Positions 2,468 to 41,537 of a stretch of 64,000 nt of DNA are shown one piece after another; position 1 is the stretch's first letter, and every line of letters starts with the position of its first letter. The stretch is taken from assembly GCF_046105845.1 (NCBI RefSeq), contig NZ_CP151004.1; one strand, written 5' to 3'. A program made the translations under genes and the position numbers. Below the pieces are notes generated by a model. The model made no database searches, was not told the origin of the DNA, and saw only the letters and a list, made by a program, of their open reading frames with translations. Source of the stretch: Escherichia coli. Its GTDB lineage: Bacteria > Pseudomonadota > Gammaproteobacteria > Enterobacterales > Enterobacteriaceae.

Positions 2468-3706
2468 ATGGCTGACACTCGCCCTGAACGTCGCTTTACG
2501 CGCATTGATCGTCTCCCGCCCTACGTTTTTAATATTACCGCTGAACTGAAAATGGCTGCGCGTCGGCGCGGCGAAGATATTATCGATTTCAGTATGGGTA
2601 ACCCGGACGGTGCGACTCCGCCGCACATCGTCGAAAAATTATGTACGGTGGCCCAGCGCCCGGACACGCATGGTTACTCCACTTCACGCGGCATTCCGCG
2701 GCTACGTCGCGCCATTTCACGCTGGTATCAGGATCGCTACGACGTTGAAATCGACCCGGAATCAGAAGCCATCGTCACTATTGGTTCGAAAGAGGGACTG
2801 GCACATCTGATGCTGGCGACGCTGGATCATGGTGACACGGTGCTGGTGCCGAATCCAAGCTACCCCATTCATATTTATGGCGCGGTGATTGCCGGGGCGC
2901 AGGTACGCTCAGTGCCGCTGGTGGAAGGTGTCGATTTCTTCAATGAACTGGAGCGCGCCATTCGCGAAAGTTATCCGAAACCGAAGATGATGATCCTCGG
3001 CTTCCCGTCGAATCCAACCGCGCAATGCGTGGAGCTGGAGTTCTTCGAAAAGGTTGTGGCGCTGGCGAAACGCTACGATGTGCTGGTGGTCCATGACCTG
3101 GCCTATGCCGATATCGTCTACGATGGCTGGAAAGCGCCGTCAATCATGCAGGTGCCGGGTGCACGCGATGTGGCGGTCGAGTTCTTTACGCTGTCGAAAA
3201 GCTACAACATGGCGGGCTGGCGTATCGGCTTTATGGTTGGCAACAAAACGCTGGTCAGCGCGCTGGCACGTATTAAAAGCTATCACGATTACGGCACCTT
3301 TACGCCGTTGCAGGTGGCAGCGATTGCGGCGCTGGAGGGCGATCAACAGTGCGTGCGCGACATTGCTGAACAGTACAAACGCCGCCGTGATGTACTGGTA
3401 AAAGGGCTGCATGAAGCGGGCTGGATGGTCGAAATGCCGAAGGCTTCGATGTATGTCTGGGCGAAAATCCCGGAACCGTATGCTGCCATGGGCTCGCTGG
3501 AATTTGCCAAGAAGCTGCTGAACGAAGCGAAGGTCTGTGTCTCTCCGGGGATTGGCTTTGGCGACTACGGCGACACGCATGTTCGCTTTGCACTGATTGA
3601 AAACCGCGACCGTATTCGTCAGGCGATTCGTGGAATTAAAGCGATGTTCCGTGCCGATGGTTTACTACCCGCCAGCAGCAAACATATTCACGAAAATGCG
3701 GAATAA
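2468..3706 (+). CDS. alaC: glutamate-pyruvate aminotransferase (PLP-dependent class I aminotransferase)
   Basis: 412-aa ORF starting [21 protein letters not shown]; aminotransferase fold motifs; K-12 synteny. Confidence 0.9.
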
Positions 3707-3728: not shown

Positions 3729-3755
3729 CAGGAGCCTGATGGCTCCTGTTTTTCA
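3729..3755 (+). terminator. rho-independent terminator downstream of alaC
   Basis: Hairpin CAGGAGCC-TGAT-GGCTCCTG followed by a T-run. Confidence 0.7.
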
Positions 3756-3770
3756 TTGCACAGTTTGCTT

Positions 3771-39051: not shown

Positions 39052-39236
39052 ACGCCACAATTCAAACGATACCAGAGCTTCTTATCCAGACACGAGGCAA
39101 TCAGACCGAAGTGGCAAGGATGCTTTCCTGCGCAAGAGGAACAGTGCTCAAGTACAACCGAGACAGCAAAGGCGAGCGTCATGTAATAGTTAACGGCGTC
39201 CTGATGGTCAAACAGGGCAAGAGGGGAAGACGATGA
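39048..39236 (+). CDS. ninH: NinH-like protein
   Basis: 62-aa ORF with GNQTEVARMLSCARGTVLKY resembling lambda NinH. Confidence 0.65.
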   Translation: MNATIQTIPELLIQTRGNQTEVARMLSCARGTVLKYNRDSKGERHVIVNGVLMVKQGKRGRR

Positions 39237-39856
39237 GACTCGAAAGCGTAGCTAAATTTCATTCGCCAAAAAGCCCGATGATGAGCGACTCACCACGGGC
39301 TACGGCTTCTGACTCTCTTTCCGGTACTGATGTGATGGCTGCTATGGGGATGGCACAATCACAGGCCGGATTCGGGATGGCTGCATTTTGCGGTAAGCAC
39401 GAACTCAGCCAGAACGACAAACAAAAGGCTATCAACTATCTGATGCAATTTGCACACAAGGTATCGGGGAAATACCGTGGTGTGGCAAAGCTCGAAGGAA
39501 ATACTAAGGCAAAGGTACTGCAAGTGCTCGCAATATTCGCTTATGCGGATTATTGCCGTAGTGCCGCGACGCCGGGTGCAAGATGCAGAGATTGCCACGG
39601 TACAGGCCGTGCGGTTGATATAGCCAAAACGGAGCAGTGGGGGAGAGTTGTTGAGAAAGAGTGCGGAAGATGCAAAGGTGTCGGCTATTCAAGAATGCCA
39701 GCAAGCGCCGCATATCGCGCTGTAACGATGCTAATCCCAAACCTTACCCAACCCACCTGGTCACGCACTGTTAAGCCGCTGTATGACGCTCTGGTGGTGC
39801 AATGCCACAAAGAAGAGTCAATCGCAGACAATATTTTGAATGCGGTCACACGTTAG
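39233..39856 (+). CDS. Q: late-gene antiterminator Q (lambda type)
   Basis: 207-aa ORF MRLESVAKFHSPKSPMMSDSPRATASDSLSG... near-identical to recalled lambda Q. Confidence 0.9.
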   Translation: MRLESVAKFHSPKSPMMSDSPRATASDSLSGTDVMAAMGMAQSQAGFGMAAFCGKHELSQNDKQKAINYLMQFAHKVSGKYRGVAKLEGNTKAKVLQVLAIFAYADYCRSAATPGARCRDCHGTGRAVDIAKTEQWGRVVEKECGRCKGVGYSRMPASAAYRAVTMLIPNLTQPTWSRTVKPLYDALVVQCHKEESIADNILNAVTR

Positions 39857-39898
39857 CAGTATGATTGCCACGGATGGCAACATATTAACGGCATGATA

Positions 39899-39927
39899 TT
39901 GACTTATTGAATAAAATTGGGTAAATT
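39899..39927 (+). promoter_or_regulatory. late promoter PR' with adjacent qut region
   Basis: TTGACT(-35)...TAAATT(-10), identical to the recalled lambda PR' core. Confidence 0.7.
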
Positions 39928-39961
39928 TGACTCAACGATGGATAAATGCACTCGTTAAATA

Positions 39962-39994
39962 AAGCCCTGAGTTAATAGCTCGGGGCTTTTTGCG
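39962..39994 (+). terminator. tR'-type terminator downstream of PR'
   Basis: AGCCCTGAG-TTAATAG-CTCGGGGCT hairpin followed by a T-run. Confidence 0.65.
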
Positions 39995-40289
39995 TTTTAA
40001 ACACGACCTTTCTGAAAGCACATCAAACCAAATACCAGACAGACAAAAATAATCACCTTATCCGCTGTGGCTACGGTGCGGTGTGCTTTGCATAAAAGAA
40101 AACCAGCTCAATGGCTGGCTTCGTGAAAGCGGGTGGCAAGAGGTTGCGCTAACAACCTCCTGCCGTTTTGCCCGTGCATATCGGTCACGAACAAATCTGA
40201 TTACTAAACACAGTAGCCTGGATTTGTTCTATCAGTAACCGACCTTATTCCTAATTAAATAGAGCAAATCCCCTTATTGGGGGTAAGAC

Positions 40290-40613
40290 ATGAAGATGCC
40301 AGAAAAACATGACCTGTTAGCCGCCATTCTCGCGGCAAAGGAACAAGGCATCGGGGCAATCCTTGCGTTTGCAATGGCGTACCTTCGCGGCAGATATAAT
40401 GGCGGTGCGTTTACAAAAACAGTAATCGACGCAACGATGTGCGCCATTATCGCCTGGTTCATTCGTGACCTTCTCGACTTAGCAGGACTAAGTAGCAATC
40501 TCGCTTATATAACGAGCGTGTTCATCGGCTACATCGGTACTGACTCGATTGGTTCGCTTATCAAACGCTTCGCTGCTAAAAAAGCCGGAGTAGAAGATGG
40601 TGGAAATCAATAA
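40290..40613 (+). CDS. S: class I holin (lambda S type)
   Basis: 107-aa [23 protein letters not shown]... with the dual-start Met1/Met3 motif. Confidence 0.9.
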
Positions 40614-41073
40614 TCAACGTAAGGCGTTCCTCGATATGCTGGCGTGGTCAGAGGGAACAGATAACGGACGACAGAAAACCAGAAATCATGGTTATGACGT
40701 CATTGTTGGCGGAGAGCTATTCACTGATTACTCCGATCACCCTCGCAAACTTGTCACGCTAAATCCAAAACTCAAATCAACAGCAGCCGGGCGCTATCAG
40801 CTTCTTTCCCGTTGGTGGGATGCCTACCGTAAGCAGCTTGGCCTGAAAGACTTCTCTCCCAAAAGCCAGGACGCTGTTGCGCTGCAGCAGATTAAGGAAC
40901 GTGGCGCTTTGCCGATGATTGATCGCGGTGATATTCGTCAGGCTATCGACCGTTGCAGCAATATCTGGGCTTCACTGCCGGGCGCTGGCTATGGCCAGTT
41001 CGAGCATAAGGCTGACAGCCTGATTGCAAAATTCAAAGAAGTTGGCGGAACGGTCAGAGAGATTGAGGTATGA
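40597..41073 (+). CDS. R: endolysin (lambda R lytic transglycosylase)
   Basis: 158-aa [27 protein letters not shown]... Confidence 0.9.
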
Positions 41074-41537
41074 GCAGAGTAACCGCGATTATCTCAGCTC
41101 TGGTTATCTGCATCATCGTTTGCCTGTCATGGGCTGTTAATCATTACCGTGATAACGCCATCGCCTACAAAGAACAGCGTGATAAAAAAGTCAGTGAGCT
41201 GAAGCAGGCGACCGCCACCATTACTGACATGCAGCAACGCCAGCGTGCTGCTGATGCACTCGATGCTAAATACACGAAGGAGTTAGCTGATGCGAAAGCT
41301 GAAAATGATGCTCTTCGGCGCAAGCTTGATAATGGTGGCAGGGTGCTCGTCAAAGGAAAATGCCCTGTGCCATCCTCAGCCGAAACCTCCGGCGCCTCCG
41401 GCATGGGCAATGATGCCACCGTCGAACTCTCTCCAGTTGCTGGACGAAACGTTCTCGGTGTCCGGGACGGAATTATCCGCGACCAAACAGCACTGAGAAC
41501 GCTTCAGGAATACATCAGGACGCAATGCCTTCGATGA
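41070..41537 (+). CDS. Rz: i-spanin
   Basis: 155-aa ORF with N-terminal TM helix and coiled-coil periplasmic domain. Confidence 0.85.
41290..41496 (+). CDS. Rz1: o-spanin lipoprotein embedded in Rz (+1 frame)
   Basis: Embedded [24 protein letters not shown]... with lipobox and a Pro-rich segment. Confidence 0.75.

Follow-up and report, generated by a model that had tools for sequence, protein, structure and literature searches.

The window, i.e., the whole stretch of Escherichia coli DNA analyzed here (64,000 nucleotides), contains a late regulatory region located between the prophage gene Q and the holin gene S; Table 1. E. coli chromosomal sequence, carrying evgS, ypdA, oxc, emrY, and dsdA, makes up the initial ~24 kb of the window, and bases 1-24000 were found to be 98.8% identical to many genomes. 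A 24-kb query spanning 33000-57000 revealed a P22-like prophage match; the best phage matches were vB_EcoP-611R6, HK620, Kapi1, CUS-3, and Sf6, each with 42-66% coverage and 94.5-97% identity. On the minus strand, 58758-58824 matches Rfam family RF00262 (sar RNA, 71.6 bits), the antisense RNA that belongs to the immI/ant region of P22, which is consistent with a P22-like prophage.

The Q protein matches Pfam family PF03589 but gave no match to PF06530, the family found for QuuD, a Q homologue of K-12; it is identical to lambda Q at 205 of 207 residues. The S and R products are each 98% identical in amino-acid sequence to those of lambda, whereas Rz is 62% identical (72% at the nucleotide level), indicating a mosaic joint at the R/Rz boundary. 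An earlier, preliminary description of this DNA had called Q and the downstream S-R-Rz genes lambda-like, which holds for Q (99%), S, and R, but not for Rz. Just 3′ of Rz lies a 161-aa ORF (41881-42366); the equivalent place in a DH5alpha prophage with the same late module is occupied by an annotated gene of the GIY-YIG nuclease family. Inside Q, the minus strand carries a CII-type site, TTGCGAGCACTTGC, at 39520-39533, and, close to the gene's 5′ end, a strong hairpin followed by a T-run (-19.1 kcal/mol) at 39272-39296. The positions of this site and hairpin within the gene are equivalent to those of the annotated a23 antisense promoter and terminator of P22, and the antisense unit resembles paQ annotated in phage 21.

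From 39899 to 39941, the window is identical at every base to the lambda segment comprising PR′, the Q-binding site, and the pause element. PR′ is annotated at the same site in HK544, HK140, HK620, and P22. A generic promoter scan returned four promoter-like sites versus 2.9 expected, which is not significant by itself; the evidence for PR′ thus rests on the base-for-base match to lambda. The putative Q-binding site is identical to that of lambda itself and to the lambda Qut quoted in the mEp234 and mEp213 records.

Table 1. Coordinates of the late regulatory region and neighboring genes in the window (+1, A39934, assigned by homology to lambda).
Feature	Position	Strand	Remarks
Late-gene antiterminator Q, lambda family	39233-39856	+	207 aa; Pfam PF03589, E = 9e-57
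PR′ late promoter	39899-39927	+	-35 TTGACT, 39899-39904; -10 TAAATT, 39922-39927; 17-bp spacer; promoter scan and identity to lambda
Q-binding site (qut/QBE), putative	39905-39925	+	TATTGAATAAAATTGGGTAAA; between the two promoter hexamers; by sequence
Sigma-70 pause element	39928-39939	+	-35-like TTGACT and -10-like AACGAT (+1 to +6); identical to lambda
5′ stem-loop of leader, predicted	39934-39956	+	AACGA pairing with UCGUU; in the minimum-energy fold
Probable tR′ intrinsic terminator	39961-39998	+	+28 to +65; hairpin 39961-39989 and U-tract TTTTTGCGTTTT (39987-39998)
HK022-type spacer in place of the lambda sequence 3′ of tR′	39995-40125	+	Alignment with lambda, HK022, and HK544
Second, weaker hairpin	40135-40169	+	GGCAAGAGGTT...AACCTCCTGCC, then GTTTTG; common to lambda
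Lysis genes S, R, and Rz	40290-41537	+	S 40290-40613, R 40597-41073, Rz 41070-41537; ORFs; first late genes under control of the predicted terminator

The transcription start was assigned, by homology to lambda, as A39934 (+1). In lambda, the start so assigned places the U-run at +188 to +193, and this register agrees with the published lambda end, since lambda tR′ termination is given at +193 (PMC4914094; the paper treats the pause position rather than the terminator distance). The P22 record annotates the base homologous to A39934 as the 5′ nucleotide of the late RNA. By analogy with lambda, RNA polymerase would be expected to pause near +16/+17 (39949-39950). The window is identical to lambda through +8 and again from +18 to +23, but five of the nine bases at +9 to +17 differ, and the base at +17 is A rather than the G of lambda, so the exact pause position is only assumed.

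The predicted start is followed by a hairpin of 13 base-pairs (6 G-C) with a 3-nt loop, which spans +28 to +56 and runs into TTTTTGCGTTTT. The preliminary description had reported a strong hairpin and T-run behind a lambda-type PR′, about 35 nt downstream of the start, and both statements were borne out, with the stem beginning at +28 and its G-C core at +31. Folding energies of -18.6 kcal/mol for the hairpin alone and -23.3 kcal/mol for the 63-nt leader (z = -5.3) were calculated, and none of 200 shuffled sequences folded as well as the leader. When strong sites were defined as a T5 run combined with a hairpin at least as stable as -14 kcal/mol, and both strands of the 64-kb window (128 kb in total) were searched, eight such sites were found, four of them on the plus strand, and the tR′ hairpin ranked fourth overall; the chance of such a strong site falling within 100 nt after the promoter is roughly 0.6%. 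A generic terminator scan, which returned five terminator-like sites versus 3.2 expected and is not significant by itself, called the tR′ hairpin as the sole plus-strand site between PR′ and S. The first U-run, at +54 to +58, consists of only five U before GCG, and termination at tR′ may therefore be incomplete. The RNA released without Q is predicted to be ~58-62 nt long, compared to 193-194 nt in lambda; together with the near-identity of the two Q proteins, this agrees with the earlier proposal of a Q-antiterminated leader much shorter than the ~194-nt 6S RNA of lambda.

In the calculated fold, the leader consists almost wholly of two hairpins joined by a 4-nt linker. The lambda, short, third-type, and phi80 leaders all retain the CGTT complement of the 5′ stem, the spacing in phi80 being different by 2 nt. 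Compensatory changes in the 5′ stem-loop pairing were not seen among the compared leaders; such changes would be invisible in this stem, because AACG is fixed by the pause element. The 5′ stem-loop might stabilize the late mRNA. For the terminator hairpin, 95% of the alignment cells stay paired over 16 distinct leader variants, including phi80, compared to 20-58% in slid controls, and three pairs are changed on both sides. The support from covariation is modest, since the leader sequences are closely related, and the main grounds for regarding the hairpin as a structure are its thermodynamics, its position, and its homology to the terminator annotated in P22. In the third-type leaders (loci L062, L114, and L063), a hairpin of different sequence occupies the same position, and in phi80 the hairpin found there likewise differs in sequence.

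Comparison with known phages indicates that 39961-39998 is, with high probability, the terminator tR′ belonging to a Q cassette of the lambda family, here in the form of the P22/HK97/HK022 allele. The hallmarks of such a cassette are all present, namely a PF03589 Q directly upstream, a QBE between the -35 and -10 hexamers, the AACGAT element, and an intrinsic terminator before the late genes. Genes for lysis and morphogenesis come after this predicted terminator. The short type of leader is recognized by homology from +1 to ~+65 and by a hairpin located ~30 nt after the RNA start, both of which were found. In contrast, the 6S body that defines the lambda type of leader (+24 to ~+187) is absent, and the leader, at ~60 nt, does not end near +193. 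The 65-nt leader is 100% identical in HK97, HK544, HK542, mEpX1, and N7, 98.5% identical in HK022 and HK140, 95.5% identical in P22 and its relatives, and 92% identical in epsilon34 and Sf101.

The terminator of the short leader was already known, since the P22 RefSeq record (NC_002371) labels the homologous hairpin "t late or tR′; antiterminated by gene 23 protein", in agreement with X78401; the RefSeq record also annotates the late promoter, a lambda-like qut, and the 5′ nucleotide of the late RNA. Judged by homology, the element is thus the ordinary, already annotated short late leader of P22, HK97, and HK022, and is not new. Public labels for it are inconsistent. The hairpin is tR′ in P22, but is left unannotated in the HK022, HK544, HK140, and ECP1 records and in RefSeq E. 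coli genomes, the HK and mEp records marking PR′ and Qut only. In HK620 (AF335538, locus L126), the hairpin interval (3111-3153) is labeled "qut; putative Q-utilization site", and "tQ" is placed ~650 nt downstream (3742-3768). A paper mapping the 3′ end of an HK97/HK022/P22-type leader was not found.

The P22 late region (gene 23, P late/PR′, and t late/tR′; NC_002371 37852-37945, X78401) carries the same allele, with promoter, qut, start, and 65-nt leader 95.5% identical to the window, and this match ruled out the possibility that P22 has a long, lambda-like leader. The P22 hairpin is annotated at +31 to +59, compared with +28 to +56 in the window; its loop and upper stem read GAGTTTAACCGCTC instead of GAGTTAATAGCTC, while the leader otherwise aligns base for base. 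P22 also has two substitutions in the Q-binding region, and its holin (gene 13) and downstream spacer differ from those of the window. In HK97, HK022, HK544, HK140, mEpX1, mEp213, and ECP1, the leader is 98.5-100% identical, and Q and the holin are lambda-like; the HK022 stem contains a U-U mismatch that the window does not have. Alignment with the lambda late region, which had been suggested as a check, revealed identity to +8 and the absence of ~135 bases that lambda carries between +24 and its own longer, composite tR′ hairpin.

The preliminary description had assigned the leader to the "82/21 type" and had proposed a comparison with phage 21. Phage 21 (OL657228) does have a short leader, of ~45-47 nt, with the start annotated at 39541, the terminator at 39543-39590 (+2 to +50), and the U-run at ~+40 to +46. 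However, its Q belongs to PF06530 rather than PF03589, its QBE is a tandem ATTGAGCA/AATGAGCA, its promoter, QBE, and hairpin are unrelated in sequence to those of the window, and tRNA genes follow the terminator, so that only the analogy in length stands. A locus of the phage 82 type would carry a Q of family PF06323, a pause at +25, and an 82-type terminator; judged by Q family alone (PF03589), the window is not of this type. The late region of phi80 (NC_021190 41989-42098) shares an AACGCT pause-like element at the start, the CGTT complement, and a related hairpin, AAGCCCGAGG...CCTTGGGCTTTTTTT, which is a putative terminator. Its leader is ~72 nt long, its Q-like protein is diverged (~269 aa by the annotated coordinates), and its promoter differs from that of the window. 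M3 RNA, a phi80-induced RNA that is a classic substrate of RNase P, is presumably the phi80 late leader. An identity of the short leader with M3 RNA was considered and dropped, as the match in DH5alpha belongs to a prophage with a lambda-type Q and not to a phi80 late region, and the phi80 leader differs. The prophage in question lies in DH5alpha assembly CP026085 (locus L127, 1454744-1459935), where the lambda-type Q is accompanied by a 99% identical short leader.

Downstream of tR′, the full spacer from Q to S (433 bp) is 96-98% identical in ECP1, HK544, HK140, HK106, mEp234, mEp213, and HK022, and homology to lambda resumes ~170 bp upstream of S. For the second hairpin (40135-40169), the calculated energy is -17.8 kcal/mol in the window, compared to -28.2 kcal/mol in lambda, where the stem is perfect; it was missed by the terminator scan because it is followed by only four T. 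It may be a back-up terminator that shares the job, or an mRNA structure upstream of S. Within the HK022-type spacer, a minus-strand terminator-like hairpin, GAAGCCAGCCATTGAGCTGGTTTTCTTTTAT, is located at 40089-40122; its G-U pairs favor the minus-strand fold over the plus-strand one, and neither a promoter nor a gene reading leftward was found for it to serve. A 51-aa GTG ORF at 40083-40238, listed as a hypothetical protein in the records of HK140 and ECP1, overlaps non-coding sequence common to lambda.

The short leader is widespread. In the phage collection, the 65-nt leader was present in 88 records, compared to 30 with the lambda 6S body, most of them lambda itself, lambda hybrids, and DE3. 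IMG/VR was scanned for the exact pattern of a lambda-type PR′; at least 120 stretches, to which the window and three reference loci (lambda, HK022, and HK544) were added, gave 72 short, 49 lambda-type, and 3 third-type leaders among the matches listed. A 192-nt query for the short module matched 333 of 5,426 complete E. coli genomes; the lambda 6S segment is present in 416 of them, a count that includes laboratory lysogens. Among phages with a lambda-type PR′, the short leader is the commoner allele, and the 194-nt 6S leader is in the minority.

Free shuffling of promoter and QBE variants is seen among the leader types. The U-run of the short hairpin is followed immediately by at least eight different sequences, one of which is the post-tR′ sequence of lambda itself (locus L107), indicating that short and lambda leaders behave as alternative alleles between conserved flanks, and that the joint of the mosaic lies at the terminator. 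Immediately behind the terminator U-run, the motif ACAACAGGTAAGAGCATT is found in lambda (locus L003, about 995-1015) and in the short-leader loci L107, L043, L030, and L054, and it reappears further downstream in HK620 (L126, 3493-3512). By its sequence, it looks like a conserved flank where leader alleles are exchanged.

A working model for the locus can be proposed from the biology of lambda and P22. PR′ would fire constitutively in the lysogen, and the need to stop this transcription before the holin gene is one argument for the tR′ assignment. Without Q, RNA polymerase would pause near +16/+17, resume, and be released at ~+58 to +62; the product would be a short leader RNA, and S, R, and Rz would stay silent. 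After induction, Q would bind its site and load onto the sigma-paused complex. Lambda Q recognizes DNA (the QBE between the -35 and -10 hexamers) and the sigma-paused complex, and forms a nozzle through which the RNA is threaded at a length of 12-16 nt (PMC9388147). If Q acts in the window likewise, as a nozzle on the RNA-exit channel through which RNA threads from 12-16 nt onward, the terminator stem could not fold, because it emerges only from +28, after threading, and polymerase would read into the late operon. The short spacing between start and stem should be no obstacle, since the 5′ arm of the phage 21 terminator begins at ~+4, ahead of the pause. P22 gp23 and lambda Q are interchangeable (PMC8022706); as the two proteins substitute for each other, a lambda-type Q would be expected to act on the short leader type, which lends indirect support to Q-dependent read-through of the window tR′. 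The 6S body appears dispensable for Q control, since the segment from +24 to +187 is naturally absent here.

Other roles for the hairpin and leader were weighed against, or alongside, that of tR′. If the HK620 labels were taken literally, the hairpin would be an RNA-level Q-utilization (qut) element, and the real Q-regulated terminator would be located further downstream, like the tQ of that record. However, lambda-family Q recognizes QBE DNA and the sigma-paused complex and not an RNA hairpin (PMC9388147); moreover, the hairpin carries a U-run and has terminator-grade stability, the same hairpin is tR′ in the P22 records, and the window contains neither the HK620 spacer nor its tQ, the 433-bp spacer being of the HK022 type. 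A qut function of the hairpin is thus highly improbable. The possibility that the hairpin is bidirectional, and also stops leftward transcription from the lysis region so that Q and the early genes are shielded from antisense transcription, would be compatible with the tR′ assignment. An A-run (AAATAAA) 5′ of the stem presents the reverse strand as a hairpin followed by TTTATTTAA, and 110 nt further to the right (40122-40099) there is a second terminator-like site on the minus strand. In the reverse orientation, however, C-A mismatches take the place of the two G-U pairs, so that the fold drops to -13.5 kcal/mol, the promoter scan detected no minus-strand promoter-like site in 39995-40300, and the ORF list contains no leftward gene ending here, which leaves a bidirectional role possible but unlikely.

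It is also conceivable, and again compatible with termination at tR′, that the ~60-nt leader RNA builds up in lysogens and is functional in its own right, either as a trans-acting RNA or as a processed hairpin RNA. PR′ is constitutive in lysogens, the terminated product is abundant in lambda and Stx phages, and the 65 nt are identical in HK97, HK544, and mEpX1. A precedent is provided by StxS, a 258-nt transcript from the Stx-phage PR′-tR′ that arises by termination at tR′, is processed to 74 nt, binds Hfq, and regulates host genes (PMC7547250). The window leader would resemble StxS as a terminated by-product of an antiterminated late promoter, produced in lysogens, but no similarity between the two sequences was found. 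An Rfam scan of 39700-40400 at a permissive threshold gave only chance-level matches to terminator-containing sRNA models, the best at 21 bits versus a gathering score of 55. In addition, two hairpins and a 4-nt linker leave little single-stranded seed, the 3′ U-run has just five U, and the conservation can be explained by constraints on promoter, pause, and terminator together with recent common ancestry. A function of the leader beyond termination therefore seems unlikely, and slightly less likely still is the broader proposal that the constitutive ~60-nt leader acts as a functional sRNA in prophages of the P22/HK97/HK022 type, which are very common, whether as a StxS-like host regulator or as a processed hairpin RNA. 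If the leader were functional, the lambda 6S and short leaders would be alternative cargo alleles exchanged at the terminator. Under the preferred assignment, 39961-39998 as tR′, the finding changes little, and the locus would represent the textbook Q/PR′/tR′ switch in its most common natural allele.
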